Shown: positions 4,282 through 29,571, numbered from the stretch's first letter. The stretch is DNA of 64,000 nt from an uncultured bacterium (GCA_966250335.1 CBINGZ010000022.1:11218-75217), one strand, 5' to 3'. Numbers and translations: made by a program. Notes: generated by a model from the letters alone, not told the origin.

Positions 4282-4548
4282 CGTTTCCTCCCGGTCCCCT
4301 CCTCCTCCGGCCGAAACGGCGCATCGTGTGTTCAACCACGCGACCGATCCGGCGCGCACGGACTTCACGAATATTGCGTGGGGCGCAAAAATCTATCGTC
4401 CCGCGGGACTTTATTCTTCCCCGCAGGCCTTGTGAATACTCGATTCTCCGCCGACGTACTACCAATCTCCACCCCCTGCTCCCGTTGCCCTCCGGTATAT
4501 CGTCTCCTAACTTCATCGCGGCACTCAGGAACCCTTTTCCTTTTCGCT

Positions 4549-6804
4549 ATGAAGATCACCCTCCTTCTTCCGCTGGTCTGGCTGGCGGTCGCGCCCACCT
4601 TCGCACAGACGTCGGACACCGTCCGTCATATCGCGCCGGGAAACAAGCTTGTCTATTACCGGAACCCCGCGATCGACATGCAGGTCGCCCGGTTCGATCT
4701 GGCGGCCCCGGTCTATATCAGAGAGCTTGCCCTCATGGTCGGTGGGGAGGCCAGCGGGAGCGCCCGGCTGCGCCTCTTCGGCCGCGAGGGAGGGGGCGTG
4801 GTTCCGGCGCTGGAGCGGGATCTGATCCCACCGATCACGATCGACAAGAAGGGAGCGGGGATCGAGCGGATCGTGATACGGCTCCCGGAGCCGGTTCTGG
4901 CGGCCGACAACCAGTTCTTCGTGGCGCTCGACGGCTTCAGCGGAGGGCTCGAACTCCTCTCCAACAGCAGTCCGGTGGCGCCCGCATGCAGCTCGCGCAA
5001 CGGCGATTTCTACAGCCAGTATGTCAGGATCTCCGGCGGCGGATGGCGGTCGTGCCCCTACGCCTTCGCCATGGATCTGGTGCTGGAGCCGGCGGAAAAG
5101 CTCTCGCCGCGATATCTGGCCGACGTCACCGTCGATGCCGCTCTTGTCGACACGGTGAGCGCGTGCGGAAGCATCGCCTGGGCCGATCTGAACGACGACG
5201 GCTGGCTGGACCTGCTCGCCGGCGGGCGTCTTTACCTGAACAATCGCGATGAGAGCTTCAAGGAGATCACCCTCTCCGCCGGCCTCTCGGGTGAGCCGGC
5301 GGCGCATCTCTTCGCCGATATCGACAACGACGGCGCCGTCGACATCCTCTTCCTCGCGGAGGCGGGGATGAACGGTTCCGGCATGACTCTCTATCGCAAC
5401 GAAGGGGACCTCAAGTTCCGCCGGAGCGCCGTCGATCTGCCGGCTCTGCGGCGTCCCACCGGAGCGAGCCTTGCCGACGTGAACGGCGACGGCCGACTCG
5501 ATCTCTTCATCGGGCAGGCCGATTCCGACCCGATCGGCCGGCTTCACGATCTGCTGCTGATCAACAACGGCTCGCTCGGGTTCGCCGACAGCTCCCGTCT
5601 GCTCGATCCCTCCCCCGCCGGTTATTCCGGCAGCTTCGGCTCGGAATGGGTCGATTTCAACAACGACGGCTGGCTCGATCTCTTCGCGACCTCGGCCGGG
5701 ACCGCGCACGACAGGTTCTGGAAGAACAACGGCGACGGCACCTTCACCGATGTCGGCCTGGAGGGGAGATCTCCCGACGAGGCCGGCCGTCCCGGCGCGG
5801 CTCGCGGCTGCGACTGGTCGGATTACGATAATGACGGCGATATCGATCTGCTTCTGCCGGAGGCGATCGCGCCGGGAAGGTTCACGGATAATGTGCCCGT
5901 TCACGTCAACGGAGGATCGCCCTACTACGATGTATCGAACAGCGATGGGGCTGTCTGGCTCTCCTACGAGGAGAAGCGCTCCGGAGGCTCGTGGGGGGAT
6001 GTCGACAACGACGGGTTGCTCGATCTGATCCTCACGACCGCGTGCGACTGCCGGTTCGCCGATCTCTATGTGCAGACCCCGGATCACCGCCTGGCGCGGA
6101 AGACCTTCGAGTACGGGCTCCACAGGGTGGCCGCCGGAGGAGACGCCGTCTGGGTCGACTACAACAACGACGGACGGCTCGACCTCGCGACGTTCGAGGG
6201 GGGACGGTTCCGGCTCTACAGGAACAACGGAGAGTTCGCCGGGAACTCGATCACCTTCGATCTCTCCGGCGGCGCAGGGAGGCAGGTCGTGGGATCGCGC
6301 GTGACGGTCCATGCCGGCGCGATGCGATATACCCGCGAGGTGACCTCCGGGCGCGGTCTGCTGATGCAGGACCCGCTTCGCCTTCTCTTCGGTCTCGGCG
6401 ATGCCGATGCCGTCGACTCGGTGACGGTGCGCTGGCCGAACGGAGGGGGGAGTGAGACGTTCGCCGGAATGCGGTCGAACACGATATACAAGCTCCAGCC
6501 GGGGGGATCGCGTTTCGCCGCCGCCGACGCGGCGGTCGGGCTGCAGCTCTATCCCAACCCCTTTACCACCGATCTGAGCATCACGTACGACCTTCCCGTC
6601 GGCGGGCATGTCTCCCTTGAGATCCATACGGCCGCCGGAAGGAAGCTCGCGACCCTGATCGACGAGATCCGCCCGGCCGGGGCGCACAGGATCACATGGA
6701 GCGCGCGCGACGAGGAGGGGAACCGGCTTCCGCCGGGGATCTATATCTATCGCTTTGTGAACGGTTCGACCACGCTGACCGGACGCGCAGTGCTCGTCCA
6801 CTAA
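4549..6804 (+). CDS. FG-GAP/VCBS-repeat plus ASPIC/UnbV (CRTAC1-family) protein with C-terminal T9SS sorting domain
   Basis: Start MKITLLLPLVWLAVAPTFAQ (signal peptide) at 4549. Seven Ca-binding FG-GAP-like loops (DLNDDGWLDLL, DIDNDGAVDIL, DVNGDGRLDLF, DFNNDGWLDLF, DYDNDGDIDLL, DVDNDGLLDLI, DYNNDGRLDLA). ASPIC/UnbV-like block VTVHAGAMRYTREVTSGRGLLMQDPLRLLFGLGDADAVDSVTVRWPNG. Terminal LYPNPFTTDLSITYDL...GIYIYRF...RAVLVH matches the T9SS CTD. Confidence 0.8.
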   Translation: MKITLLLPLVWLAVAPTFAQTSDTVRHIAPGNKLVYYRNPAIDMQVARFDLAAPVYIRELALMVGGEASGSARLRLFGREGGGVVPALERDLIPPITIDKKGAGIERIVIRLPEPVLAADNQFFVALDGFSGGLELLSNSSPVAPACSSRNGDFYSQYVRISGGGWRSCPYAFAMDLVLEPAEKLSPRYLADVTVDAALVDTVSACGSIAWADLNDDGWLDLLAGGRLYLNNRDESFKEITLSAGLSGEPAAHLFADIDNDGAVDILFLAEAGMNGSGMTLYRNEGDLKFRRSAVDLPALRRPTGASLADVNGDGRLDLFIGQADSDPIGRLHDLLLINNGSLGFADSSRLLDPSPAGYSGSFGSEWVDFNNDGWLDLFATSAGTAHDRFWKNNGDGTFTDVGLEGRSPDEAGRPGAARGCDWSDYDNDGDIDLLLPEAIAPGRFTDNVPVHVNGGSPYYDVSNSDGAVWLSYEEKRSGGSWGDVDNDGLLDLILTTACDCRFADLYVQTPDHRLARKTFEYGLHRVAAGGDAVWVDYNNDGRLDLATFEGGRFRLYRNNGEFAGNSITFDLSGGAGRQVVGSRVTVHAGAMRYTREVTSGRGLLMQDPLRLLFGLGDADAVDSVTVRWPNGGGSETFAGMRSNTIYKLQPGGSRFAAADAAVGLQLYPNPFTTDLSITYDLPVGGHVSLEIHTAAGRKLATLIDEIRPAGAHRITWSARDEEGNRLPPGIYIYRFVNGSTTLTGRAVLVH

Positions 6805-6874: not shown

Positions 6875-9800
6875 ATGAGCAAGATGAATCGGGGAGAGAG
6901 GTACTCTCCCGCCGCCGTACTGTCGTTCGCCCTCATCGCGTCGTTCCTCTCCCTGCTTCTCCCCCCTCTTCTGAAGGCGCAGACGGCGGGGCCGGCGCAG
7001 CCGGAGTTCTCGAACTTCGAGCCGGTGTCGACATCGAACATGGTGAACCCGTTCGACGGCTCGTTCACCTACAATATTCCGGTGGTGACGATCCCGGGGC
7101 CGCAGGGGAGCGGATATGCCCTTTCCCTCTCCTATCACAGCGGCAACACCCCTGAGACGCAGTCGTCGTGGGTCGGCTACGGATGGACGCTGAACCCGGG
7201 GTCGGTGATCCGCGACCTGCGCGGGTTCCCGGACGACCACAAGGGGGCCGCGGTCAGGTACTGGAACAAGACCGGGAAGAACTGGACGGTGTCGGTGATG
7301 CCGAAGCTCACGTTCGAGCTCTTCAGCGCCGAGGAGCTTCCCGAGGGGATGTACGGGCCGGAAGAACTGAAAAGGATGGGGGACCTGTTCAGCTTCAATA
7401 ACACACTGCGATACAACAACCGGAAGGGGTTCGGATACTCCAAGTCGATTAATGTCAGCCCCAACCTGAAGGGGATGCCGGACTGGAGCAAGGGGGTGGT
7501 CAGCCTGAACCTGAGCCTGGACGATGGAGTGGGGAGCTTCAACTTCGGGATCAACCCCGCCAAGTCGTTGATCCAGCATGCGCTGGGGACCTCGTTCCCT
7601 TCCTCGACCGAAGACATTTATATCGATACCCGAAAGAATTTCAACAGCGCCAACTCGATCAAGCTCTTCGACCTGATGAGCGTCTTCTCCTTCTCGGGGT
7701 CGATGCGTGCGTCGAACCTCCCGGAGTACGAGGGGGAGTCGTACAACGTCCGTGTGAACGGGATGTTCACGACGACCCCGATGCCGGTCGGCATGAAGAT
7801 GGGGATAGAGGGGAGCTATACCTGGCAGCGCAACCGCGAGTCCAACATCGACGGCGCCTACGGCTACATGTATTCAGGTGACGCCGGAGAGGGGGGAGCA
7901 ATGGACTACTACCTGGAGCGTGAATCCCCCTACGTGAAACGGGAGAACTACCTGGCGATCCCCTTCAGCAACGCCGACAACTTCACGGTCACCGGCGAGG
8001 GGGTCGGAGGCGGATTCCGTCTCCACAGCGACAGGGCCGGGCATTTCGGCCCCGTCGGCAGGCACAGCAGCATCGAGATCCTTCAGGCAGGGCTTGAGCT
8101 TCATGCAGGGCTCAACGTGGGGGTCGGCTTCAGCCTCGGCGTCGGGCAGCATACCCTGGAGGTCAACCGCTGGGAGGATGAAAGCAACAGCGCCCATCAC
8201 TACAGGGCCAACAAGGGGGACGACAGCTACTTCTTCCGCTTCAACAACGACCCCGGGGGGGATGTGACGTTCGCCGACGACGACACGCCGGTCCGCGCCA
8301 GAGCCGTGGGGCCGTTCCTGAATCCCCCCATGTTCAAGTCGTACGATCCCAAGATCAGCGCCTTCATCAGCCCCACCCCGCTCGACGGCACGCAGCGATC
8401 GAACTATATCGCATATCATACGAATCGTGAGATGATGCAGCGGAGCGACACGCGTGTCGGCGAGGCGTGGGAGGTCAACGGTGTGTACTACAACTCCTAC
8501 AACAAGAATATCGCCTCCCGTGATTTCGTCGACAGAAGCGAACAGCCGGACGGTATCGGGGAGATCGCCGTCTTCAACGAGCACGGCAACAGGTACGTGT
8601 ACGGACTGCCGGTTTATTCCAGAAAGGAGAAGAACCTCCAGTTCGGGCTCGACGGCGCATCGGCCGATGATCGGGAGAACAATCATATCGCCTATACGGT
8701 CACGACCCCCTCGGCCTCCGAGCTCGTCGTCGGCGAGGAACGGAACATGCCGTATGCGAGCATGTTCCTGCTGACGGAGATCACGACCCCCGACTATGTC
8801 GACCTCACGAACAACGGCCCCACCCCGGACGACTTCGGCGGCTACACGAAATTCAACTACCGCCGCGCCGCCGGCAGCAACAGCAAGATCGACGGCGAGA
8901 GCGAGGGATGGGGGGAGAACGCGAACGAGTGGTACAAGTGGAGGTTCCCGTTCAGCGGGCTGATCTACAACAGGAACTCCCTCTCCGATCCGGAAGACGA
9001 CAGAGGTTCCCTCACCTCCGGAGAGAAGGAGCTCTACTACCTGGAGTCGATCGAGACGAAGACGCATATCGCACGGTTCATCACCAACAAGTGGCCCGAT
9101 AACCTGGGGGAGCGTCTGGACGCCTACGAGGCGCATCACGATGAAGCGGTGGCGATGGGGGACCGCGACGCCGAGATCGGCCCGGTCGGCGACGAGCCCC
9201 CGGTCAACAAATCCGAATATCTGACCAGGATAGAACTGCATGCGAAGAAATCGAACGGCGCCCCCGGTGAACTGCTCCAGAGGGTGAACCTGGAGTACGA
9301 TTACTCCATCTGCCCCGGCCTTCCCGGCTCGTACAAGCCGGAGGGAGCCGAGAAGAGCGGCGGCAAGCTTACGCTCCGGAAACTCTGGTTCGATCACGGC
9401 AACACCGCGAACGCCGAGATCAGCCCCTACGTCTTCCACTACAACTACAGGAAGAGTGAGGATTACGCGCAGGAGGTACGCGACGCCTACCCGGAGATCA
9501 CATCGTTCGGCGATGCGTACTATCCTTCGAGCATGACCACGGAGCAGCAGGAGAAGATCCAGAACCCGGACTACTCCCAGTTCCTCTCCGACCGCTGGGG
9601 CTATTACCAGTTCAACGGCGCCGACCGCTACAGGATCATGAACCCGTGGGTCGATCAGACCCCGGAACCGGAGTTCGATCCGGCCGCGTGGGAGCTGAAG
9701 GTCATCAGGCTTCCATCGGACGGCGAGATTCACGTTCAGTACGAGCAGGACGACTACGCGTATGTGCAGGATCAGCCGGCGATGGCGATGGTCAGTCTGC

Positions 9801-12800
9801 TCCACCCCGCATCGAACAGGCTGCGGGACGGCGCGGAGGGGACGGGCGTCAACCAGGCCAGATACGACATCAACCTGGCCGACCTGGGGATCCAGAGCGA
9901 TCCGACGAAACCCGATTATTCGGCCGACGAGATCGTGGAGCTGCAGAAGCGGATCTTCGAGCAGTTCGTCGTGAGGAAGGAGAAGATCTATTTCAAATAT
10001 CTCTATGCGCTCGTCGAGCTGTACGACGACTTCATCAACGCGGGCTTCCCGGTGAACCCCGAGGATTTCGCAACGGCCAGCGACGAGGTGAAGGAGATGA
10101 TCCTGCGGCGATGCGGCGCGGAGTATCTGAACGGATACGCCCAGGTGAGGGATGTCCTGCTCGATCCCCCTCTGAGCCCGCAGCCGACGGGGATCAAGAT
10201 CCTGCTCGGTACCGGGGAGGATGGAGATTACTCGATCCCGCACGAGCTCTGCCTCGATTTCCTCCGCAAGGAACGGGCGGGACGTGTCATCCCCGGCGCC
10301 GACTGCGATGCTCCGAACGATTATACCATCAGCGACGACGGCGAAGCCGTCAGCAGTGTCCGCCAGCTGTGGTCGTTCATGGGAACCATGTTCTCCGACC
10401 TGGAGACCAACTGCCGCACACTCGACTATCCTCACTCCTATCTCCGCATCCCGATAACGCGCCCGAAGAAGGGGGGGGGGATCAGGGTGAAACGGTTGCT
10501 GACCTACGATCCGGGGATCGAGTCCGGGGACGCGGCCCTCTACGGACAGGAGTTCTTCTATCGTACCGAGGATGGAAAAAGCAGCGGCGTGGCCGAGAAC
10601 GAACCGACGACGGGGCGCGATGAGAACTCGATCGTCAAGGAGATGAAGCCGCGTCACGACGAGGACGAGGAGGCGGAGATCGTGGCGGGTGAAGACCTTG
10701 CCGAATATGAAGGGCCGCTCGGCGCCAGCATCATGCCCGGTCCCTCGGTCGGATACTCGCGTGTGGTCGCGCACGATATCAACACGCGCAAGACCGGCAC
10801 CGGGTTCACGGTCCACGACTTCTTCACGGCGAAGGATTATCCCTTCGGGATGCGATATGTGCCGGCGACCGAGGGAACGCCGGAGCCGGCCGGGCTCGAC
10901 AAGAATCCGGTCAGCACGGAGCTTGAGGATCACGCGGACTGGATGATCCTCCCCCTTGGGTTCGCCGGCTACTCCAAGGCCAACGTCTGGCTCACACAGG
11001 GATATTCCTTCGTCGCCAACCGGATGCACGGCCAGCCGAAACGGACGGCGGCCTACGGCGGCCTCTACGATCCGGTCGACCCGGACCCCGCCTCGTGGGT
11101 CCTCAGCAGCCTGGATCAGTACGAGTATTTCGCCCCGGGGGAGCCGGTTCCGCTTATGCGGAGCGCCTCCGATATCGGCAAGAGAGAAGGGGGGATGGCC
11201 GATCCGGTCGTTCCGGGCGGGGTGATCGAGGAGTTCGAGACCGGATATCCCGGGAAGGAGATGGAGGTCCTCTTCGAGGGACGATGGATCGCCGACGACA
11301 AGACCGACATCGCGGTCCCGAGCGATATCAGTATTCCGATACCGGTCGGAATTCCTCCGATCGTCTCATCGGTCGCTCTCTTCTCCTACTCCACGAACAA
11401 CCTGCGGACCCATGTGACGACCAAGGTCGCCCGCTACCCGGCGCTGGTCAAGCGGATGATCACATATCGTGATGGGATCTACGACAGAGTCGACAACCTG
11501 GCGTTCGATCCGGAGACGGGGCGCCCGGCGGTCACCCGCACATACGACGAGTACGACCCGATGCACGAGCCGGTCAGGGCTCCGCATCTTTACGACGGAC
11601 GCTATCGCACCTACACGCTCCCCGCCATGCGTGACCACCGGGAGATGGGGCAGAAGGCGCTCGGCGAGCGCGGCACGATCCTTTCCGGGGACGATATCTC
11701 CGTCACCAGAAAATATCTCGGCACGGACCTGACCCCCTATCTCTCCTTCTCGTTCACGAAGCCGGGAACGGCGGAACTGATGGAAAAGATCGTACCGGGA
11801 GATCTCATCCGCCTCAGTCGCGACAACGGCGGCTTCGCGGGGCTCTACTACGCGGGAACGCCGCGGGGGAACATGCTTCCGCTTCTCCCCACCTATCTCG
11901 GCGGCGACATCTTTACATCGGAGAAGGTGGGGATCGAGATCCTGCGCAGCGGGCGCACGAACCAGCTCAGCGCCGCAAGCGCCGAGATCAGGACGTTCGG
12001 CAGGCCCCGTGCCGTGCAGATCGCGGACGAGAACGGTCAGTACGCATCGAACCGGGACGATATGTTCCTTGCCAGGGAAGGGGTCGTCACCGCGCTCAAC
12101 ACGGCGCTGGATCTGCTGGAAACGATGCCGGTCACCTCTACCACGGGAGTATCGTTCGCCGATGATATCGGTATCGTCGACGTGGACGGGACCTGCCGTA
12201 CACGCCCTTCGGGGACGCCGTGGATCGAGCTGAAGAAGGGCGCCGGGCTGGGGACCGGGGTGAATATCAGCATGGAGGTCGAGACGCGCACGGCGGCGGA
12301 AGCCCCTCCGCTCGTCAGCCCGAGTTATCCGGAGGATTCCCATCCGCTCGTGGTCGATCTCAACGCGATGCTGAACAGGACGTGGGGAATGGAGATCCAG
12401 AGTCTGACGGCGTCGCCGTCGGCACTGTTCGACTGCAGTTCGATATGCACCCCGTATTACGACGAGGAGATCCATGAGGGCTTCCCGCGTTATATCGAGC
12501 AGACATTCCCCTCGGCCATGAAGACTCCGATCCTGGCGGTCGCGGGGATCTCGGCGATACGCACATCGATGTACGATGTGGCGAGCGGTTCGGTGTCGGG
12601 CTCGGATCTTCTTGTTACGACAGACTCCGATATCGGAACCGGATGTATATCGGATCGGGAGGAACGGACGTCGAAGCTGAAGAATATCGCGATCGTTGTA
12701 AAGCAGCCCGGAACGCCGAACGCCCTTACGCTCACGCTGGACGGAAATATCAGGGATTACGTGAGGGATGTCACCTGGGTATACGAGAACGGGCAATACG

Positions 12801-15007
12801 ATCCGGCGCAGACGGCGAAGGCCGGGTATTCGCTGGCCTGTACGGCCCCGGCCGACCTCGGCAACTGGGTGCTGGCCGATGAGGGGGGAAACCCCGAATG
12901 GACCAACTCGGCGCTCGAACCCTCCCCCGATCCGATGGCCTGCTCGAAGCAGTATACGGCGGATGATCCCGGTCTGACGCCGCATCAGGACGCCGAAAAG
13001 AACAACAGTGATATCGTATCGTTCTACGATCCCGGCGTCATCTTCACCGAACAGTTCGCGCGCTTCGGGAACGACGCGGAGGGGAACCTGACGCTGACCC
13101 TTCTCGACGAGAACGGCTGTGACTACCGGAAGCTGACCACCGGCATCAAGCTCTTCGCCCCTCCCGAGCAGGAGGAGACGTGCAGCATCGTGCTGGCCGA
13201 GCTGCCGGGGACCGCCCTCGACTACGGCGCCTTCGAGCTCGATCCGGTGACCTGGGAGGTCCTCTACCGTCCGGAAGGGGAGGCCGCCGCGACGAAGATC
13301 CCCTGCCTTCCGTTCTGCGAGACCGTCAGGTCGGTCAGGACGCTGAACGGCGTGGTGGCCGCCTCGGCGCAGACCTTCGGCGACGACTGGGCCTTCGATC
13401 ATGGTGAGTTCAAGGGAATCCCCTTCAGGGCCAACGCCTACGAGTCCGGGGAGCGGGGGAAATGGCGTCCGGAGGGGGGCCACGTCTTCAATACCGAGAT
13501 CTACGGCGGCACCGGCCTCTTCGGCAAGTCGTACGAGCGAAGCTTCAGGGGAACCGATCCGTCGGGACCGCCGACGCAGGAGACGCACGGGGCCGGCGTC
13601 TACACCGGGTTCACGCTCCACAACCCGGTCGATGAGGCCAACAACAGCCCGAAATGGCTCCGCACGACCGGTGTGGTCTCCTACTCGCCGCACGGCATGC
13701 CGACGGAGCAGCAGGATGTGCTGAACATCCCGAGCGCCTCCAAGTACGGTCACAAGAACATGGTGCCGGTGCTGATAGCCAACAACGCCCCGTACGATGC
13801 CGTGGCGTTCGAGAGCTTCGAGGGGGCGTCCGGCCAGCCGTCCGGGGTCGCGCACTCCGGCAGCAACTCTCTGATGATGACGACGTGGGGCGGACCGGTG
13901 TCGATCCTGGGGCCGACGATCTCGCGGCTGACCTGGACTGCCGACATGGCGTCGCAGGGGGTCTCGGTCAGAGTCTGGTCGAAATCATCGTACACCGATG
14001 AAACGAAGCGCGACGAGCTCGTCGGCGCCCCCTTGTTCAATGTCACCCTTATGGACGAGGACGACCAGCCGCTCCTCTCCATAGCGCCGAGCGCGTTCAA
14101 GCTGATCGCGCAGACCGGCGAATGGTCGCTCCACGAGATGAAGACCACCGGCCTCAGCCTGTCGGTCGGGGATCGCTTCGGCCTGCAGTTCTCGCTGGGG
14201 CAGCGGGGTGTTTCGGGCGGGGGACTCGAACCGAACACGACCTGGGTCGACGACATCAGGGTGCAGCCGGTGACGGCGCAGATGAACTGCTACGTCTATG
14301 ATCCCGCCTCGCTCCGGCTGGTGACCACCTTCGACGATCAGCACTTCGGCATCTACCATCAGTACAACGCCGAAGGGAAGCTGGTGAGGACGCTGAGGGA
14401 GACGGAGCGCGGGATGAAGACCGTCAAGGAGCAGCAGTACCACACCCCGACGCTCGCCCGCGATATCGATCCCGCGGTGGCCGGCATCCCGCCGGCCGAG
14501 AGGATCTCCGGCGATGCCGAACGTCTGCTCGGACGCCTGCGCGGCGCCCCGGCCAGGGTCGACATGGGGGACAACGGCGCCGGGGCGACCGCCGATATCC
14601 TGGATATCGAGCTGAGTCCCGAAAAGCGGACCGTCAAGCTCTTCGGCGAGACGAACCCGACGCTCCCGGACTTTACCGAGATAACGGCTCCCGCCATATC
14701 GCTCCCCGATGTCGATCTCCTGGAGAGTCTTGAAGGGCTCGATCTCACGGAGGTCGAGAAACTGAAGTTCATCGGAGAGCTGCGGGCGCTGGATGAGAAG
14801 CTGAGAGAGATCGCCGGGCGCGACACGGTCGCCCTGAGCGACGATGAGAAGAGGAAGCTCGACGATGAGGTGAAGACGCTGGAAGGGCGCCGGAACGAGA
14901 TCCTCAGGGATTCCCTGAAGCTCTCCGACGATCAGATCCGAGAACTCTACAGAGATGCCGAAGCGCTCCGGAAGGAGAAGGAGGAAAACGATGACGAGCG
15001 GAAATAA
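6875..15007 (+). CDS. Giant (2710 aa) secreted protein with N-terminal SpvB/TcB-like domain, a YD-like repeat segment and a coiled-coil tail; candidate Tc-toxin B-like cocoon component
   Basis: Signal peptide MSKMNRGERYSPAAVLSFALIASFLSLLLPPLLKAQ. Residues ~60-110 (NIPVVTIPGPQGSGYALSLSYHSGNTPETQSSWVGYGWTLNPGSVIRDLRGFPDD) match the conserved SpvB N-terminal motif of TcB/TcaC proteins (..G.GyaP.L.L.Y.SG.gN..fGlGW.....I.R). Later segments resemble YD/RHS repeats (CYVYDPASLRLVTTFDDQHFGIYHQYNAEGKLVRT). The C-terminal ~130 aa is a heptad-rich coiled coil (LKFIGELRALDEKLREI...KEKEENDDERK). The sense strand is confirmed by these motifs; the long antisense ORFs are GC artefacts. Confidence 0.7.
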   Translation: MSKMNRGERYSPAAVLSFALIASFLSLLLPPLLKAQTAGPAQPEFSNFEPVSTSNMVNPFDGSFTYNIPVVTIPGPQGSGYALSLSYHSGNTPETQSSWVGYGWTLNPGSVIRDLRGFPDDHKGAAVRYWNKTGKNWTVSVMPKLTFELFSAEELPEGMYGPEELKRMGDLFSFNNTLRYNNRKGFGYSKSINVSPNLKGMPDWSKGVVSLNLSLDDGVGSFNFGINPAKSLIQHALGTSFPSSTEDIYIDTRKNFNSANSIKLFDLMSVFSFSGSMRASNLPEYEGESYNVRVNGMFTTTPMPVGMKMGIEGSYTWQRNRESNIDGAYGYMYSGDAGEGGAMDYYLERESPYVKRENYLAIPFSNADNFTVTGEGVGGGFRLHSDRAGHFGPVGRHSSIEILQAGLELHAGLNVGVGFSLGVGQHTLEVNRWEDESNSAHHYRANKGDDSYFFRFNNDPGGDVTFADDDTPVRARAVGPFLNPPMFKSYDPKISAFISPTPLDGTQRSNYIAYHTNREMMQRSDTRVGEAWEVNGVYYNSYNKNIASRDFVDRSEQPDGIGEIAVFNEHGNRYVYGLPVYSRKEKNLQFGLDGASADDRENNHIAYTVTTPSASELVVGEERNMPYASMFLLTEITTPDYVDLTNNGPTPDDFGGYTKFNYRRAAGSNSKIDGESEGWGENANEWYKWRFPFSGLIYNRNSLSDPEDDRGSLTSGEKELYYLESIETKTHIARFITNKWPDNLGERLDAYEAHHDEAVAMGDRDAEIGPVGDEPPVNKSEYLTRIELHAKKSNGAPGELLQRVNLEYDYSICPGLPGSYKPEGAEKSGGKLTLRKLWFDHGNTANAEISPYVFHYNYRKSEDYAQEVRDAYPEITSFGDAYYPSSMTTEQQEKIQNPDYSQFLSDRWGYYQFNGADRYRIMNPWVDQTPEPEFDPAAWELKVIRLPSDGEIHVQYEQDDYAYVQDQPAMAMVSLLHPASNRLRDGAEGTGVNQARYDINLADLGIQSDPTKPDYSADEIVELQKRIFEQFVVRKEKIYFKYLYALVELYDDFINAGFPVNPEDFATASDEVKEMILRRCGAEYLNGYAQVRDVLLDPPLSPQPTGIKILLGTGEDGDYSIPHELCLDFLRKERAGRVIPGADCDAPNDYTISDDGEAVSSVRQLWSFMGTMFSDLETNCRTLDYPHSYLRIPITRPKKGGGIRVKRLLTYDPGIESGDAALYGQEFFYRTEDGKSSGVAENEPTTGRDENSIVKEMKPRHDEDEEAEIVAGEDLAEYEGPLGASIMPGPSVGYSRVVAHDINTRKTGTGFTVHDFFTAKDYPFGMRYVPATEGTPEPAGLDKNPVSTELEDHADWMILPLGFAGYSKANVWLTQGYSFVANRMHGQPKRTAAYGGLYDPVDPDPASWVLSSLDQYEYFAPGEPVPLMRSASDIGKREGGMADPVVPGGVIEEFETGYPGKEMEVLFEGRWIADDKTDIAVPSDISIPIPVGIPPIVSSVALFSYSTNNLRTHVTTKVARYPALVKRMITYRDGIYDRVDNLAFDPETGRPAVTRTYDEYDPMHEPVRAPHLYDGRYRTYTLPAMRDHREMGQKALGERGTILSGDDISVTRKYLGTDLTPYLSFSFTKPGTAELMEKIVPGDLIRLSRDNGGFAGLYYAGTPRGNMLPLLPTYLGGDIFTSEKVGIEILRSGRTNQLSAASAEIRTFGRPRAVQIADENGQYASNRDDMFLAREGVVTALNTALDLLETMPVTSTTGVSFADDIGIVDVDGTCRTRPSGTPWIELKKGAGLGTGVNISMEVETRTAAEAPPLVSPSYPEDSHPLVVDLNAMLNRTWGMEIQSLTASPSALFDCSSICTPYYDEEIHEGFPRYIEQTFPSAMKTPILAVAGISAIRTSMYDVASGSVSGSDLLVTTDSDIGTGCISDREERTSKLKNIAIVVKQPGTPNALTLTLDGNIRDYVRDVTWVYENGQYDPAQTAKAGYSLACTAPADLGNWVLADEGGNPEWTNSALEPSPDPMACSKQYTADDPGLTPHQDAEKNNSDIVSFYDPGVIFTEQFARFGNDAEGNLTLTLLDENGCDYRKLTTGIKLFAPPEQEETCSIVLAELPGTALDYGAFELDPVTWEVLYRPEGEAAATKIPCLPFCETVRSVRTLNGVVAASAQTFGDDWAFDHGEFKGIPFRANAYESGERGKWRPEGGHVFNTEIYGGTGLFGKSYERSFRGTDPSGPPTQETHGAGVYTGFTLHNPVDEANNSPKWLRTTGVVSYSPHGMPTEQQDVLNIPSASKYGHKNMVPVLIANNAPYDAVAFESFEGASGQPSGVAHSGSNSLMMTTWGGPVSILGPTISRLTWTADMASQGVSVRVWSKSSYTDETKRDELVGAPLFNVTLMDEDDQPLLSIAPSAFKLIAQTGEWSLHEMKTTGLSLSVGDRFGLQFSLGQRGVSGGGLEPNTTWVDDIRVQPVTAQMNCYVYDPASLRLVTTFDDQHFGIYHQYNAEGKLVRTLRETERGMKTVKEQQYHTPTLARDIDPAVAGIPPAERISGDAERLLGRLRGAPARVDMGDNGAGATADILDIELSPEKRTVKLFGETNPTLPDFTEITAPAISLPDVDLLESLEGLDLTEVEKLKFIGELRALDEKLREIAGRDTVALSDDEKRKLDDEVKTLEGRRNEILRDSLKLSDDQIRELYRDAEALRKEKEENDDERK

Positions 15008-15800
15008 CAGAGGAAGAGCGACCGGACCGTCGTTCCGAATCGCGACACGATTCATTGCCTGCGCGCTCCTGATCCTCCTGGCGGGGACCGAGTCCCGCGC
15101 GCAGGGCTCCTCCGAATGTCTGCGCCCGGTCAGGGATATCTATCGCAGACTGAGTGAATATCCGACAGGGGAGAGAGCGTACCATCTCGCCTACCGGGTG
15201 CGGACGATCATGGCCGACAGCTCCCGGTGGAAGAACAGCACATCGCGGATCGATCTTCTCATGAACGGGGAGAGCGTCCGCTACATCAGCCCGGAGATGG
15301 AGATCTATCGCGACAGCTTCCACACGGTCGCCGTGGTTCCGGAACACCGTATGGTTCAGGTGTCGGCCGTGGGGACCGCGGCCGGGACGGAGGAGATGTG
15401 GGGGAGGATCACTCCCCTCAACGATTCCCTGTTCGCCCGGCTGCATGTGGAGGCCTGCGACGAGATACGCGACGGCGAGGGGCGGCTTCTCAAACGGATC
15501 TCGGCGTCGGCCGACTCGGCGACGATGGCGATCGCCGGGGTCGAGAAGCTCGACTTCACCCTCGATTCCTCCGGAACCTCCCTCCGCACGGTGACGGTCC
15601 ACTACCCCCGGCCGAACCGGGTGGCGGCGCTGGAGGTGACCTTTGAGAGGGTCGATCTGGACGCTCCGGGCGCGGCTCTGGCCCTCTCCCCCCTCTCCGT
15701 CCTGTTCGACGACCGGGGGGAGCTGCTGCCGAAGTACGGCGGGTATCGGATCTCCGACCTTCGCAACTCGCGCTCTTCGAGCAGGGAACAGACTCCGTAG
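14991..15800 (+). CDS. Secreted hypothetical protein (~269 aa) between the two giant toxin-locus genes
   Basis: ATG 14991 overlaps the upstream stop by 17 nt. N-terminus MTSGNNRGRATGPSFRIATRFIACALLILLAGTESRAQG is signal-peptide-like. No recognisable catalytic motifs. Codon usage is like its neighbours. Confidence 0.45.
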   Translation: MTSGNNRGRATGPSFRIATRFIACALLILLAGTESRAQGSSECLRPVRDIYRRLSEYPTGERAYHLAYRVRTIMADSSRWKNSTSRIDLLMNGESVRYISPEMEIYRDSFHTVAVVPEHRMVQVSAVGTAAGTEEMWGRITPLNDSLFARLHVEACDEIRDGEGRLLKRISASADSATMAIAGVEKLDFTLDSSGTSLRTVTVHYPRPNRVAALEVTFERVDLDAPGAALALSPLSVLFDDRGELLPKYGGYRISDLRNSRSSSREQTP

Positions 15801-15866: not shown

Positions 15867-18800
15867 ATGAGCGTCTCATCCATCGTTCATCGGTTCGCGA
15901 TTCTCTTCCGTTTCCTGTTCACGGCGGCGCTGCTTGTCGTCTCATCCGTTCCGGCGAGCTCCCAGCAGATCGAGCGCCGCACCGCCACACCCGACGGACT
16001 CTCCGGCGTTGACGGAGGGACCTCCGAGAGCGTCCCCTTCTATGCCATAGAGCAGAAGACCGCCAAGGTGGAGTGGAACGGACCGAACATCATCACGAAC
16101 GCCCAGACCTCCCGGTCGATCGTCCTTCTCGGCGATCCGACCCCCGCGAACTGCTCGCAGACCGATCCGACCGAGGCGAAGCTCAACATCCGCCTCTTCA
16201 TGGGGAACCGGAGCGGAGCGCACGACGAATACGAGTTCGGGACCAACCAGTTCAAGGTGACGGTGCAGGTCCGGATCACCAATACACGCAACGGCGTCCC
16301 GGTGCTTCCCACGACCGATGTCACGCTGGTGAGCCGCGTGGAGATGGTTGCCGGGAAGCTGATGATCGAGCCGGAACAGCTCCACAGCAGCAGTTATCTC
16401 TCGCTGCTGACGGGGCCTACTCCGATCAACGGCATCACCGTCAAGATCATCAACACGCCGACCGTGACGGTGCCCGGCGGAACCCCGGCCGCGGTGACCG
16501 CCAGCCTGGCGGCGAACATCCATATGGAGGCGTTCACGCACGAGGTCTACAAGGTGGCCGGGCGGAGCATCGCCAACTCGGGGAACGATATTCTTGTCGC
16601 TCCGACCGCCGTGACGGCCGTCGGCGGCGAGGTGGTCTCCAACCCCGTCACCTTCTCGTGGGATCTGCTCGCCTGCGACAAGTTCCCCAACTACGAATTC
16701 CAGTTGCTCCGCCTCTACAACAACGATCGCGACAACGAGCCGGATGAGAAACATATCGTGGCGGATGTCGACTGGCGGAAGGCTCTGACGATCGAGACCG
16801 GTAACTCGAAGACCGATCTGACGCTGACGGTCGCCGAGGGGAGCGGATACTACCTCTGGCGCGTCCGCCCGATCGGCGACTACTATCCGGGGGGGATCGC
16901 CAACGACAGGAACTGGGGGGTATGGAGCCAGGCCCCGCCGCAGGGCTCCACGGTCGAGATCTCCGCCACCGAGTTCACGATCACGACGGAAAGCGGCACG
17001 ACGATCGTGGGGCCGAGCGATCCGCGCAACGCGAGCCGGCTCTTCTACAGGCAGTTCGACGACGAGAAGAACTGGATCTTCGAGCGGACCTTCAGCGAGG
17101 GAGAGGAGGGAACGAAGATCGGCGAGGGGATGGCATACGCCTCCTCTCTGATGCAGGTCAAGCAGAAGCAGACGATCCTGAAGACCCACGAGCGGCGTCT
17201 GGTCAGCCAGACGGTCTACGATTACAGCGGGCGCCCTTCCCTCACCGCGCTTCCGGCCCCGGTCCCCGTTCCGGAGGGGATCGGGTTCAGCTACAGGACC
17301 GGGACATTGCAGCATGGGGGCGGAACTCCGCATCTCTACACGGCTGCCGATTTCGACGACGACACCCCCTCAGGGGCGAGCTGCGTCCCCGCGAACTATC
17401 CCTACCTCAACCCCAAGCCCGTCGACGCAGGGATCGTGGGGAATTACTACTCCGACGTCAACTCCGATCTCGATATACCGGATGCCGACGGTTATCCGTT
17501 CCGGCGTGTGCTCTATTACCGGGACGGATCGGGGCGGGAACGTGAATCGGGGAACGTCGGAGCCGCCCACAGGATCGGCGGAAGCGCCGAAGGGGCCGAC
17601 AGAACCGTCAAGACATACTACGGCAGCGTATCGCAGACCGAGCTTGTGCGTCTCTTCGGCGACGAGGCTCCCAGAGCCGACGCGGTCCACAAGATGATCA
17701 CCGTCGACGAGAACAAGGTCGCCACCGTTCAGTATATCAACAACCACGGGAAGCCGATCGCATCGGGCATGATCGCCGGAGCGAACGACCTGCTGACCGA
17801 GATCGAGGGCTATTACGAGGTTTCGCTCCCGAACCCGCACGGCCTGAAGAACGTCGTGGTCAACGAAGCGGTGCCGGGGCGTATGATGCTCGGCGACGAC
17901 GATATGGGGAAGGGGACGAGGCTCGTCTTCATGAAGCCGACCGAGGTGACGATGAGCTACACGCTCACCGTGAACTCCTTCCAGCCCCCATGCGGCTCCG
18001 GCTGCTGGCCGTGCGATCTGGAGGTGGAGTTCGTGATCAACAGGGTCGACAGAGATTGCGACGGGGGAGATCCCGTCCCGGTCTGCAACTCCGCTTCCCC
18101 TCCGCCACCCGGCGCCCTCAACGTCTTCCCGCTCGTCGTTCCCGTTTCGATGGAGAACGTCGAGTGCTTGACGCCGACCGTGCAGACGAGCACCACGGTC
18201 TGTCTCGGCGCGGGGACCTACATCATCGAACGGAGGATCAGGAAGGCTTCCCACACCCTCGGTGAGCTCTCCGCGTTCGAGGAACATGCCGCTACACAGC
18301 GTGCCGAGGTGCGCGATCAGATCAACGACGTGCTGAACGCCGGGCAGGGGACCGGCACCGTGAGCCTTGCACAGATCATGGATCTGGTGGCGGCCGGGCC
18401 CTCCGCTTCGACCCCGAAGTCCCTGGAGGATCTCTACCGGTATATCGAGGACGATATCCTGATCGGTGAGAACAACATGGGGCCGGACCGCTTCACGCGG
18501 GTGATCGAGAACGAGGAAACGATCGGCTACACGTTCGAGACCGAATGCTGCGGCGAGATCTTCATCCCGCGTGAACGTTGCGAGATATGTGGGGAGGGAC
18601 AGCCGGCGTACGAGTTCGAGCAGCTGCTCTACGACAAGTGGGGGAGCAAGTACGATGATGATATCGACGACTATTTCTTCACCGACGGCTTCCCGACGTT
18701 CTCTATGGGAGGGATCGACAAGGGAGACAACGGCCAGTTCGACGCCGTGATCGACCGCATGGTCAACGAGGCGGGCTACAACTGCACGGAGCTGTGGGGG

Positions 18801-21800
18801 ATCTGGCAGGGGATCGTCATGGGCTACGAGAGCATGGTGCACGGCCGCGCGCTCGACGAAACCGAGTCTCCCGACCAGGGGAAGAGAAGACGTGTCGATC
18901 TTCTCAACGAGTTCCTGAGACAGGCCGGGCCGAAGTACCAGGAGACGACGACCGATGTGGGAGCCTTCATCCTCCGCCCCTACAAGTTCGTCCTGATCGC
19001 GCGTCGCGACGGAAACGGGGACAACTGCCAGGGGAGCAACGGTCCGGAAAGCTGCTATAACCTCTGCCTGGAGACGCTCGAGTGGCCCGCCGAGGACCCC
19101 CCGGTGGGCGATCCGCTCTGGTCGAAGCTCTACAACTGCATCCACGGCAACATCTTCCCGGAGGAGGAGGAAGAGGAAGGGGACTGCGAGGGACTGACCC
19201 CCTGCGAGTGCGCGACGAAATATTTCGCCAGGGTCGAGGAGGAGTGCAGCAACTCGTGCAGAGGGCGGTACGACGACTTCCTCGGCTCGGTCATGAAAGA
19301 GTATCGCAGCAACGGCTTCCATATCCAGGGGGACCCGAAGGTCGGCGGCGGAACGTGGGAATGGGGTGAGACCGATCCGGCCACGAGCAAGGCGGTGATC
19401 ACCCTGAAGCAGACCTACTGTCTGGCCGAGGCGCTGGTGGAGGAATGCATGAAGGGATGCGATATGACGGTGGAGTGCGACGGAGACGAGGTGGAGTCAC
19501 TGCCGGCCGACGATGAATCGTTCGTCAGAGCGATCAAGTCGCTCACCTCCGGCTACGAACTCCAGTTGCCGAACGGGACAGGGGCGTGCCCGACCGAGGA
19601 AGGCTGGGTGACCGTGGACGCAGGGGCTCCCGACAATAACGTGACGGAGAGGAAGCGGTTCGTCAGGGCTCTTGCCAGTTATGGCAACGATGAACTGCAG
19701 AAGTATCAGGATGCCGGGGAAACGGCTCCGAATTACGGAGGCGGGGGGCTTCCGTACTGGGAGGATGTCATCGACGGTGAGTCATATATCTTCTGCTCCC
19801 AGTCCGCCTACAACGAGGCTCAGCTCGTGAAGCTGGTCAAGACGTTCTCGAATCATTATGCTCCTTCCACATGCACCAGTGAGCCGCTGGCCCAGTGTGG
19901 CCTTCATATTCACTGCTGTAATCCGTTCAGGACGAACAAGGGGGGAGGCGCATCGCCTCTTGCCTTCGAGCTTGACCTGCCGGAGATCGACTGTAACGAT
20001 CCGGAGGTCGCGTGTTCGACCGGTGACGAAACGACCTGCCCCGATACCGATCATCGCTGCATGTTCCATCTGGGGCCGGGGATCCGCGCGGAGATCATCG
20101 TCAATCCGGAGGACTCATGCCAGATCCTCTACCGGCGCACCTGCACGAGGGAGGATGGTCCCCCCCAAGTAGAGGATGCTCTTCTCTGCTGCTTCTGCGA
20201 CTTCAAATGCTCCGGAAAGATCTGTTTCCGATGGAAAGAGCCGTCGCCGCCGTCGGTGGACGAGGTGATCGAGCTCTCGCAGAGAACCTGCGACCAGGAG
20301 GCGGTGAGGCGTGTCCGGCGCGCGATAACGCAGCAGATGGAGCATTGCGCCGACAGCCTGGAGAGCATTCTCCGCAGGCGGTATGATGCCTCGTGCTCCG
20401 ATCCGACCAGGGTCATCGACGAGTTCAGGCTTCAGTACAAGCTCGACGACTACTATCACTTCACCCTCTACTACTACGACAGAGCGGGGAACCTGATCAA
20501 GACCGTGGCGCCGAAGGGGGTCAACGTCCTCCCCGTGCCGAACCCGATGACGCATCCGGCCCACGACTTCCAGACCGGCTACGAGTTCACCTCGCTCGGC
20601 CGGATGGTCAGGTCGATGACCCCGGATGCCGGGAAGACGGAGATATGGTACAACGCCAAGGGGCAGGTCCGGTTCAGGCAGGGGGCGGAGCAGTTCACGC
20701 GCGGTCGCTTCTCCTACATCAAGTACGACGTGCTGGGACGCGAGGTGGAGACCGGCGAATGCATGCCGATGTCGATCCCGCGCAATGCGATGAAACTGCC
20801 GCTCAACCCGACGCTGGTGGTCGCTCTCCTTTATGCATCGATCTCCCCGGACGTCCCTTCCTTCCCGACCGTCGACGTCGGCCACAGAGGGTATACGACC
20901 TATACGATACCCGGAGCAGCCGTCTACAACCCGAGCGGGCAGGTACTCCAGCAGCGCTATCTGCAGAACCGCATCAGCAGCCGGACGACCGACGAGGGGA
21001 CGGCTACGTTCTACAGCTACGATCCGCACGGCAACGTCGAGTGGGTGGTGCAGCGGGTTCCGTTCTGGCGGCCGCAGCCCGGCGGCGGGCTGCCGTTCAT
21101 GGATAACTATGTGCGATATGAATACGATCTGATCAACGGCAATGCTGTGCGGCTCTTCTACAACGAGGGGATGTCCGATCAGTTCTTCCACCGCTACGAG
21201 TTCGACGGGGATAACCGGCTGAGCATGGTGGAGACCTCGCGCGACGGGGCGATCTGGGAGCAGGACGCGACCTACGCCTACTATCTGCATGGTCCGCTCC
21301 GCCGGATCGAGCTGGGGGAGGACAACCTTCAGGGGGCCGACTACACCTATACGATCCAGGGGTGGATGAAGGCATTGAATCATCCCTCCCTGGCGGAGAC
21401 CTACGACCCGGCGATGACGTTTGATCCGGGGAAGGATGGGATCACCGTGCCGGTGACCGGAAATAATCGTTATGCGATTGATGCGTTCGGCATGGCGCTG
21501 GGGTATTACCGCGGCGATTTCGACAGGTCGCACAACGATGGAAGTGGACTCCGGCAGTCGCAGTTCAATTCCGGGACGACCAACCAGGGTCCGCACAACC
21601 TGAACTATGTGGTCTCCGCGCAGTCGTTCGGGCTCTTCAACGGCAATATCGCCACCTGGAGCAGCAACATCATCCGGAGCAATACGGCGCTGGACAATGA
21701 GAGACTTACCGGCTATATCTACAGGTACGACAAGCTCAACAGGCTCGTGAAGGGGGACTTCCGGATCCACAGCGGTCTGGTCGGCGGCAATCCCAACTGG

Positions 21801-29100: not shown

Positions 29101-29571
29101 GAGTGCCGGGTCGACGTGCCCGAGCACGAACCGCTGGAGGCGGAGGTGATCGCCGAGCTGACGCACGGGACCGAGGACTACTTCGAAGAGACCGAGATCT
29201 GCCGGGTCGAGGGGCAGGTCGTTCCTGTGCAGATCCAGTCGATCCGGCAGGAGGAGACCTCCGGCGAGACCTCCGATGCTCCGTCAATATCGGCGGTTCC
29301 CGGCGCGGGCGAAACCGGTCTGCGCGCGGTTCCGACGCCGGTCAGGCTCGGTGAGCGCTTTGTGCTGCAATCCCCGATTCCGCTCGGCGCCTCCGTCGAG
29401 ATCGTGATCGGCAACACGGCCGGCGAGGTCGTCGAGCGCCGGACGGTCTCCGGCGAGGGGGAGCCCGATCTCTCGGTCTCCACCCTGGGATGGGCTCCGG
29501 GAGCCTACGTGGTTCGTGTGACGGTCGGTGAGAAGGTCATCGGCACGGCGCGGGTCGTCGTCGTGGAGTAG
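26194..29571 (+). CDS. T9SS cargo protein built of SBBP-type beta-propeller repeats with C-terminal Por sorting-domain-like tail
   Basis: Signal-like N-terminus (AAVVLAAAAMATAPRLEAQ). More than 12 repeats of ~50-60 aa with pattern G..QWs..Yg......d.g.si..T.DgGfIvaGyt, for example GALQWSRAWDGS...TNDRGFIVAGWAN and GATQWAKSYGRQ...TFDGGYIVAGYSNS. The C-terminal ~80 aa (LGERFVLQSPIPLGASVEIVIGNTAGEVV...GAYVVRVTVGEKVIGTARVVVVE) resembles a T9SS CTD. Confidence 0.7.
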   Translation: MMGTFLRMSSGTTATNPPVVRREKVERRSTVAKRCAAVVLAAAAMATAPRLEAQFEYYYGDASALVDEWAYDMDATSDGGFIMVGARFSAGVTEVYAVKTDRVGQMQWDRTYRLNPAPLTTTTGYSVDETFDPFGNPSGYAITGSVSGFIGGVMSQDALLLKIDGVGALQWSRAWDGSSFGSNNADAGQSVQQTNDRGFIVAGWANYRTQADCFNPLSHVGGDMLLTKTNANGLTQWSAVVSHGPLFIPAGQFAYRMLRAQSVQQTTPDNGYIVAGYHHDPLAVPCQVLPAVNERMYALRLVPPGGPPAIAWSNTYPDPMGIADRGNCVRQVSDGFIIVGATQRATKDVYVVKTNTAGAVMWAKAYDAGGNDEGYTIRENGSRFVIAGTSTGAGGADALVMEITSNGGLIAAKLQGDLGTDEARAVRPVEHGRYVAAGFTDSYGGVGNYDLYMFDTDLEACEHCPGDDVPMTVSDVATFAHQEPVTISSAQPKTWSIVAADVSVLDQEICSTCQDLTAPTFQKHYNGWRVDFGTGGIPTAGGAGYAVVGYTHNSFDPGEDADALLMNLDPDGGIIWARELYTGISITQTDDRNDPGNRLEHGYAVAQTGDGFIVAGDIYYRNTTRDTNGLLIKVDQNGATQWAKSYGRQNEGEHDLWKSIHKTFDGGYIVAGYSNSRFAPTTPAGYNFYVMKTDASGNVGGPNTWAYTYGGDRDDFAYHIEMTDDNDDGIINNTDDDGDGIAEDGYIVVGYSNSSNDVINGGVDDDIYVVKLRADGTREWDAYYATGGEGQFYEDLGFWITEVDDNDVDSRRDDGYAIAGHTTFGGNGIASVYLLRIADNGTRIWDKKLEGDVNLDATAMSISQAIDKGFIVAGYTWSGFTPGLVDQSLLIKVDLCGNPQWSKEYPQTAMPADADHAASAFQTGDGGYVVFGTTCSFVHPGKADVHVAKTNCLGQLCNSEDLEWTAIEPECRVDVPEHEPLEAEVIAELTHGTEDYFEETEICRVEGQVVPVQIQSIRQEETSGETSDAPSISAVPGAGETGLRAVPTPVRLGERFVLQSPIPLGASVEIVIGNTAGEVVERRTVSGEGEPDLSVSTLGWAPGAYVVRVTVGEKVIGTARVVVVE

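Follow-up and report, generated by a model that had tools for sequence, protein, structure and literature searches.

An EndoU-tipped Rhs toxin with a large, conserved cysteine-rich insertion, a probable external display scaffold

YD-repeat cocoons of the Rhs type are a general form of toxin packaging, and how such toxins reach and recognize their targets without components of type VI secretion systems (T6SS) or of the Tc toxins is poorly understood. A 64,000-nucleotide stretch of DNA from an uncultured bacterium (GCA_966250335.1 CBINGZ010000022.1:11218-75217; the window, with positions counted from its first letter) encodes, in a single open reading frame (ORF) of 2690 amino acids (aa), an Rhs/YD-repeat polymorphic toxin interrupted by a large cysteine-rich insertion, which is the subject of this report. 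The same 2690-aa gene call is present on the identical public metagenome contig (ENA ERZ27394034). The ORF and its parts, together with the gene that overlaps its end, are as follows.

15867..23939, plus strand: Rhs/YD-repeat polymorphic toxin ORF, 2690 aa, with RHS_repeat, Rhs_assc_core and EndoU_bacteria matches
15867..15965, plus strand: Sec signal peptide, aa 1-33, predicted from the sequence
17067..17852, plus strand: N-terminal YD-like/DUF6443-like β-sheet region, aa 401-662, preceding the insertion
17853..20453, plus strand: cysteine-rich insertion, aa ~663-1529, 45 cysteines, delimited by the alignment gap of the homolog P0015 and by the cysteine profile
20454..22862, plus strand: main YD-repeat cocoon, aa 1530-2332 (Pfam RHS_repeat, E = 1.8e-6)
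22389..22508, plus strand: thrombospondin type-3-like repeat within the shell, aa 2175-2214 (sub-threshold TSP_3 and MtsC-type matches)
22863..23138, plus strand: Rhs-associated core domain, aa 2333-2424, ending ...IDLDGLEG, the motif context of a possible autoproteolytic toxin release (NCBIfam TIGR03696, 44.4 bits, cutoff 32.5)
23139..23936, plus strand: C-terminal toxin region, with the EndoU RNase domain at aa 2607-2689 (nucleotides 23685-23933)
23936..24184, plus strand: 82-aa acidic ORF, candidate immunity gene by position only, in ATGA overlap with the Rhs stop codon

This protein is predicted to be an exported polymorphic toxin with an RNase tip because it combines an Rhs core, an RHS repeat region, an EndoU domain (PF14436, EndoU_bacteria; 44.8 bits against a Pfam cutoff of 25.3), a Sec-like N-terminus and a positional candidate for an immunity gene. 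No 19-mer of the protein other than one in the putative signal peptide (aa 10-28, Kyte-Doolittle 2.22) is strongly hydrophobic, and VPASSQQ comes directly after this segment. The 82-aa ORF is also called on the source contig and gave no match in the family libraries, and the toxin tips vary among the homologs (Tox-MPTase3, for example). Two further regions precede the insertion: a conserved 'GYYxWRVRPIG' domain at aa ~255-345, with the motif itself at aa 326-336 in a MAFFT alignment of 38 rows that includes the full-length query (the window protein) to anchor the segment, and, immediately before the insertion, a DUF6443 (PF20041) match of 18.5 bits, below the gathering score of 27.8; precomputed PF20041 matches are found in the homologs P0001, P0003, P0009 and P0013. 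Late in the YD shell, the thrombospondin type-3-like repeat, a calcium-binding type, is followed within 6-14 residues by C2220 and C2228. At the equivalent shell site TSP_3 is matched above the cutoff in P0023 (29.4 bits) and below it in P0022 and P0029, and the repeat looks like a second conserved decoration of the shell. The Rhs/EndoU toxin itself is ordinary.

An initial reading of the window from the nucleotides alone (the sequence-only reading) had pointed to a cysteine-dense region ahead of the main YD shell, and this region is real: 43 of the 52 cysteines of the protein fall within aa 678-1478 (hypergeometric P = 2e-15), and all eight cysteine-rich strings that had been quoted are present, from aa 709-742 (nucleotides 17991-18092) to aa 1441-1458 (nucleotides 20187-20240). 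Cysteine makes up 5.2% of the insert (aa 661-1530) and 0.4% of the remaining protein. The boundaries are set by the homolog P0015, which lacks the insert and aligns to query aa 258-662 and then directly from aa 1530; the intervening ~867 residues (aa 663-1529) therefore constitute an insertion. This segment of ~95 kDa has a net charge of -75 and no hydrophobic helix, its best 19-mer (1.23) lying in the predicted β-sandwich described below. The N-terminal 700 aa of the query have homologs in Bacteroidota, several of which continue into cysteine-rich sequence with similar motifs.

The sequence-only reading had also held such a module to be rare in bacterial Rhs proteins; it is, however, no one-off. 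At E<=1e-3 an exhaustive phmmer search recovered the representatives of 107 clusters, 47 of them reaching E<=1e-10 and 8 reaching E<=1e-30; counted in 50%-identity clusters, the family numbers at least 107. A scan guided by a profile, in which each species was represented by one genome, confirmed 341 loci. The phmmer relatives are nearly all Rhs-like proteins of 2000-3700 aa from Bacteroidota, Kapaibacteria, Ignavibacteria and Chlorobiota, and the same groups recur among the loci listed, which are mostly metagenome-assembled genomes, the Bacteroidota being represented there by Chitinophagales, Saprospiraceae, Cytophagales, Flavobacteriales and Bacteroidia. In most complete members the match starts between ~aa 550 and 1100, and every member contains a cysteine-dense block (on average 3.27% cysteine inside and 0.55% outside). 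The few source names that accompany family proteins are 'hypothetical protein' or 'RHS repeat-associated protein', and no description of this family was found in the literature on DUF6443, cysteine-rich Rhs proteins and Bacteroidota Rhs cassettes. The relatives surfaced only by the exhaustive phmmer search and the profile-based scan: a word-indexed homolog search with the cysteine-rich segment returned no matches, the protein itself included, and a single-sequence scan of genome contigs with the same segment found no relatives. The protein encoded upstream of the toxin is present in the 5.8-billion-protein collection at 100% identity (P0132), though the word search with the cysteine-rich segment was empty. 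The empty word-indexed result is a database or indexing quirk, which is relevant to the reading of 'no homolog' results.

Some members of the family depart from the single-ORF arrangement. The corresponding giant gene appears as two adjacent or overlapping ORFs in several of the metagenome assemblies (L001 10001-16596, 1191+1007 aa; L002 10001-17130, 637+1733 aa; L085 10001-14864, 1000+610 aa), which may represent frameshifts, pseudogenes or assembly errors; L085 is the insert-less example, so its functionality is uncertain. Downstream of the Rhs gene in L002 (17938-21747, the protein P0054) there is a 1269-aa 'orphan' copy. Its identity to the main gene is 94-100%, beginning at the end of the insert and running on across the shell, and only the last ~150 aa diverge; it looks like a toxin-switching cassette with a 5' breakpoint inside the insert. 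P0062, P0115 and P0116 resemble this copy, and no orphan toxin-switching copy is found in the 64-kb window.

The predicted structure of the insert was obtained with AlphaFold2 for aa 401-1600 from the 38-row alignment (mean predicted local distance difference test score, pLDDT, 72.8; predicted template modelling score, pTM, 0.49), the prediction from the single sequence being uninformative (pLDDT 35). The model places YD-like strands at aa 401-660 and YD hairpins after the insert, and between them suggests four parts.

17856..18245, plus strand: sub-domain 1, predicted eight-strand β-sandwich, aa 664-793, with the near-invariant C709-x3-C713-x2-C716 (pLDDT ~78)
18273..19736, plus strand: sub-domain 2, predicted mainly α-helical, cysteine-stapled core, aa ~803-1290 (AlphaFold2 helices, pLDDT ~63-68)
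19737..20066, plus strand: variable slot, aa ~1291-1400, a lineage-specific cysteine-rich linker (pLDDT ~50 over aa 1331-1400)
20067..20453, plus strand: module B, aa ~1401-1529, continuing into the YD shell and, in jackhmmer, a conserved module of its own (pLDDT ~75)

The β-sandwich is proposed to be of a jelly-roll type resembling carbohydrate-binding modules (CBM). The helical core carries conserved cysteines (CC894/895, C905, C973, C1054, C1091, C1127-x3-C1131, C1185, C1194-x3-C1198 and C1241; conservation 83-100%), and the two conserved C-x3-C motifs lie on long helices of the model. Module B is modelled as four strands and a 37-residue helix (aa ~1406-1511), with C1453, C1475 and C1510 conserved at 99-100%, C1444 at 75%, and C1494 at 43%, the latter co-varying with C894. 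No known ordinary bacterial domain, which the sequence-only reading had allowed the segment might turn out to be, aligns to it: the two halves of the insert (aa 678-1100 and aa 1080-1530) match no Pfam family even at E<=10, the insert has no NCBIfam counterpart, and sequence and profile searches of the PDB yield no relative of it. Self-BLAST detects no internal repeat, and the cysteine spacing is irregular, from 1 to 115. The family profile matches in the PDB only the YD/Rhs-core parts of mosquito SGS4, YenC2, Tse5, RhsA and the bacterial teneurin-like protein (BiTLP; 9PT5/9IFO). In a Foldseek comparison of the model with the PDB, the only significant match is mosquito SGS1 (E = 1e-5, 227 columns), confined to the YD-type sheet, and a fold search of BFVD returned negligible TM-scores only. 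The helical core has no match in the PDB sequence, profile and fold searches and, as modelled, seems to have a fold for which no related structure has been solved.

The cysteines are the most constant feature of the insert. In the jackhmmer alignment of 122 relatives, 18 cysteines of the query (709, 713, 716, 895, 905, 973, 1054, 1091, 1127, 1131, 1185, 1194, 1198, 1241, 1444, 1453, 1475 and 1510) reach a conservation of 75-100%, the value being >=83% for 17, and the independent MAFFT alignment places its invariant cysteines at nearly identical sites. In P0022, the closest homolog (41% identity), a cysteine stands opposite 39 of the 45 in the insert, many of these being lineage-specific. The cysteine pattern is thus shared among homologs, the lack of which would have spoken against the sequence-only reading. 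Beyond the conserved set, certain cysteines come and go in pairs. Both members of the pair 979/1019, which is absent from the query, occur in 72 sequences, one of them alone in 1 and the other alone in 0, and neither in 34; for 894/1494, both of which the query has, the corresponding numbers are 39, 4 and 0, and 49. The latter two residues are 600 positions apart and bridge the two conserved modules. Such paired gain and loss is the pattern expected of disulfide partners. The conserved cysteines most likely form disulfides because the protein is predicted to be exported.

The framework that these cysteines appear to hold together accommodates different domains in different lineages. In the jackhmmer analysis the family profile splits into a module A (query aa ~601-1290) and module B (aa ~1400-1558), and what lies unaligned between them measures 6 to 590 residues in the relatives. 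In P0126 this slot contains leucine-rich repeats (LRR_8, E = 3e-16), in P0033 thrombospondin type-3 repeats (E = 2e-10), and in P0053, P0043 and P0124 SBBP-type β-propeller repeats (NF047494, E = 1e-8 to 1e-19), with similar SBBP-like repeat motifs in the slots of P0094, P0057 and P0085. The slot of the window protein is short, lineage-specific and cysteine-rich. Module swapping in the slot of a conserved framework points to a role in surface-exposed display or recognition, because that framework hosts interchangeable, putatively ligand-binding modules. The SBBP repeat type that fills the slot of some relatives also occurs in the window, in a 1125-aa protein encoded at 26194-29571 (plus strand) with a sub-threshold match to a sorting tail of the type IX secretion system (T9SS; 19.6 bits, cutoff 23).

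In our judgement the insert, a conserved, family-specific domain, probably serves as an external, disulfide-braced display or binding scaffold on a Sec-exported EndoU Rhs toxin. The ~870-aa segment, which follows the N-terminal YD-like sheet and precedes the main YD cocoon, would consist of the jelly-roll/CBM-like β-sandwich, the mainly α-helical core, the variable slot and a β/helix module that returns to the shell, the framework being held by the ~18 highly conserved cysteines together with lineage-specific ones. It most likely lies outside the cocoon because it is large (~95 kDa), strongly acidic and devoid of hydrophobic helices; the position would be equivalent to that of the β-propeller in TcB, the NHL domain in teneurins and the receptor domains inserted into mosquito SGS1. 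A place for the insert as cargo inside the cocoon was considered and rejected, as ~95 kDa would be too large to share with the toxin a cavity such as that of BiTLP, of ~44,000 Å3 (PMC13018210). The rigid scaffold would bind a ligand on the target surface or, as a secondary possibility, the co-encoded partner proteins, and the slot would take different binding modules in different lineages. We infer the chemistry of the disulfides, the place outside the cocoon and the role in binding; the boundaries, the family, the conservation and pairwise co-variation of the cysteines, the lack of matches to known domains, the predicted secondary structure and the exchange of modules in the slot are results of the analysis, as is the synteny described below.

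Several points weigh against this interpretation. The ligand or binding partner is putative, and the cysteine-cysteine pairing is a prediction. The co-variation statistics are inflated by shared ancestry, and cysteine counts in 91 members (42 even, 49 odd) show no even-number bias, so that not every cysteine of the insert need be disulfide-bonded. The confidence of the helical core is low (pLDDT ~63-68), the model has a pTM of 0.49, and the jelly-roll matches are not localised within the model. Furthermore, the insert is accessory to the system rather than part of its core machinery, because the insert-less homolog P0015 retains a 2541-aa upstream partner.

The genes upstream of the toxin form a conserved neighbourhood on the same strand.

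4378..6804, plus strand: FG-GAP/UnbV_ASPIC β-propeller protein upstream of the cassette (Pfam matches)
6875..15007, plus strand: upstream 2710-aa protein, predicted exported partner, syntenic with the Rhs family
14955..15800, plus strand: ~280-aa putative exported protein, encoded after the partner and ahead of the Rhs gene, with a signal-peptide-like N-terminus, overlapping the end of the giant gene

In L001 the Rhs homolog is preceded by a protein with 36% identity to the 2710-aa one, and of the 84 loci compared 69 encode such a homolog upstream and on the same strand, 59 of them at >=50% protein coverage. The 2710-aa protein has 496 homologs; among the 120 listed there is no precomputed Pfam domain and no name other than 'hypothetical protein', and no relative was found in the PDB, even by profile. 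Its N-terminus (aa 55-113) shows sub-threshold SpvB and DUF6531 matches, aa 58-113 aligning with SpvB positions 1-52 (E = 0.006, 16.3 bits, below the cutoff of 22). The ~280-aa protein, called as 269 aa on the source contig, has no family match but is 36% identical to the syntenic ORF of L003 (E = 6e-46), and its gene is present in 29 of the 84 loci. The FG-GAP protein has substantial homologs at the equivalent upstream position in L015, L032 and L078 and a partial one in L008. In L002 (8263-9558) and L004 (833-2224) a WD40-type β-propeller protein is encoded immediately upstream of the Rhs gene, beside or in place of the ~280-aa protein.

The 'TcdB/TcaC' mode of export for Rhs toxins, which includes bacteroidetes, combines a signal peptide, SpvB and an integrin-like propeller (Zhang et al., PMC3482391). 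The cassette in the window may be a diverged and split version of this mode, which is a lead and not a demonstrated membership. The C-terminal ~83 aa of the FG-GAP protein (FlgD_ig-like) recur at the C-termini of two other large ORFs of the window, at 163-396 (minus strand) in a legume-lectin/Ig_7 protein and at 63603-63836 (plus strand) in a 1023-aa ORF (60768-63839); the shared tail suggests a secretion or sorting signal, possibly of the T9SS type. Immediately downstream of the toxin and the candidate immunity gene, a regulator with TPR and LuxR/GerE domains is encoded at 24342-26027 (plus strand), and after it comes the 1125-aa protein with SBBP repeats.

Given these partners, the insert could alternatively be a docking adaptor that attaches the cocoon to the giant partner as well as to the ~280-aa and FG-GAP proteins, in the way the TcB β-propeller couples the BC cocoon to TcA, which we regard as unlikely. 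Where the flank is long enough the giant gene is nearly always there and in the same orientation, and the ~280-aa gene is also found repeatedly, but P0015 keeps its partner without having an insert to dock it. In location the insert does correspond to the propeller, following the N-terminal sheet and preceding the main shell; its slot, however, holds classic ligand-binding modules that vary by lineage while the partner stays conserved. The weak SpvB-like/DUF6531-like N-terminus of the upstream protein and the SpvB plus integrin-like-propeller route known for bacteroidetes Rhs toxins would be in keeping with docking, but the SpvB match is sub-threshold and the partner family is without a PDB relative. 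Nor is the suggestion of the initial reading supported that the cysteine-rich segment may stand in for a delivery component of the TcA type: conserved partner genes are found immediately upstream, and the giant partner persists where the insert is missing.

A second alternative is that the cysteine clusters bind metal, zinc or an iron-sulfur cluster, in a metal-dependent structural or redox module instead of forming disulfides. The closely spaced conserved motifs, C-x3-C-x2-C (709-716), CC-x9-C-x2-C (894-908) and the two C-x3-C, could be read in this way, as could the lack of an even-number bias in the cysteine totals. Yet the invariant and near-invariant columns of the insert in the MAFFT alignment include no histidine, the conserved cysteines are spread over 800 residues and lie on predicted helices rather than knuckles, and cysteines are gained and lost in pairs, one of them 600 residues apart; moreover, the Rhs protein has a predicted signal peptide and all its cassette partners look exported. 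Metal ligation accordingly appears improbable to us as the general explanation. Of the extracellular receptor- or metal-binding region first proposed for the segment, an exported, binding-type role is plausible and metal binding improbable.

An RNase payload that acts in the cytosol needs an entry route, and the core is mainly helical in the model, so that a membrane-translocation or pore domain carrying EndoU across the target envelope could be envisaged; the insert, however, has no hydrophobic segment (its best 19-mer, as noted, is in the β-sandwich, and the net charge is strongly negative), and dense disulfide stapling would presumably oppose unfolding for membrane insertion. The translocation reading was rejected on account of the missing hydrophobic helices, and we consider it very improbable. 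Least credible of all, and in effect refuted, is a cysteine-rich ectodomain of the epidermal growth factor (EGF), tumor necrosis factor receptor (TNFR), furin-like or teneurin type, as the sequence-only reading had suggested, since its sole support is the cysteine density in an Rhs/YD protein and the combination of EGF, cysteine-rich and YD-shell regions in teneurins (PMC13018210), whereas there is no hidden Markov model match at E<=10, no repeat, no regular cysteine spacing and, in place of a small disulfide-knotted β-rich fold, a predicted β-sandwich and a core with long helices (aa ~803-1290), with no EGF or TNFR-receptor structures among the fold matches.

If the insert is a binding scaffold, it could be the receptor-display arm of an undescribed, Sec-dependent delivery cassette of the Fibrobacteres-Chlorobi-Bacteroidetes (FCB) group, composed of the FG-GAP/ASPIC protein, the ~2100-2700-aa protein with an SpvB-like N-terminus, the ~280-aa protein and the Rhs toxin; this extension is tentative, and we would not yet rely on it. 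Were it true, the cassette would be functionally analogous to the Tc toxins while being built from unrelated parts, and lineages would retarget the toxin by swapping β-propeller, leucine-rich repeat or thrombospondin type-3 modules into a fixed slot of a disulfide-braced fold without any structural relative known. The locus defines a large unannotated domain, with conserved partner genes that lack informative annotation, widespread in environmental Bacteroidota, Kapaibacteria, Ignavibacteria and Chlorobiota, and the fixed slot with its varying binding modules points to a modular mechanism of targeting.

Among the known systems, the T6SS Rhs effectors (RhsA, Tse5, Tse15, RhsP and Tre23) have PAAR- or VgrG-binding N-termini, with neither a signal peptide nor a large cysteine-rich insert, whereas the window protein has a predicted Sec signal and no PAAR match. 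To DUF6443 (PF20041), a domain of Bacteroidota Rhs proteins, the window protein gives a match below the gathering score just ahead of the insert, and several of its homologs carry the domain; the cysteine-rich insert lies outside it and is without a Pfam model of its own. In teneurins and BiTLP (PDB 9IFO/9PT5) a YD shell likewise encloses the C-terminal toxin and extracellular decoration lies N-terminal to the shell, but the window protein has neither an NHL propeller (there is no Pfam NHL match in it, and AlphaFold2 predicts no propeller for the part that separates the shell from the N-terminal sheet) nor EGF repeats, and its cysteine-rich region is unrelated in sequence and predicted fold. 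Bacterial teneurin-like proteins have been found in six phyla, none of them Bacteroidota.

The Tc toxins (TcdB2-TccC3, YenB/YenC2) share with the window protein the YD cocoon, the Rhs core, the C-terminal toxin and a domain inserted after the N-terminal part of the shell, and the cassette may have Tc-like traits in the weak, sub-threshold SpvB-like motif of a co-encoded protein and in the FG-GAP propeller protein. The insert, however, is predicted to be a cysteine-rich α/β scaffold instead of a β-propeller, the protein has its own putative signal peptide and a complete shell, and the TcdB mid-N, TcdB mid-C and TcA families have no Pfam matches in the Rhs protein, the upstream ORFs and the other large ORFs scanned. 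Mosquito SGS1 (PDB 8FJP) differs in being a salivary protein of a eukaryote, gained through horizontal transfer, with another payload and no counterpart of the helical cysteine-rich core. Like the window protein, however, it is a giant YD shell with extra domains inserted in the YD-repeat sequence, and there the insertions, a CBM, a carbohydrate-recognition domain of the lectin type, a β-propeller and a 'wedge' in which two disulfides are conserved, are displayed on the exterior of the shell (SGS1 paper, PDB 8FJP).

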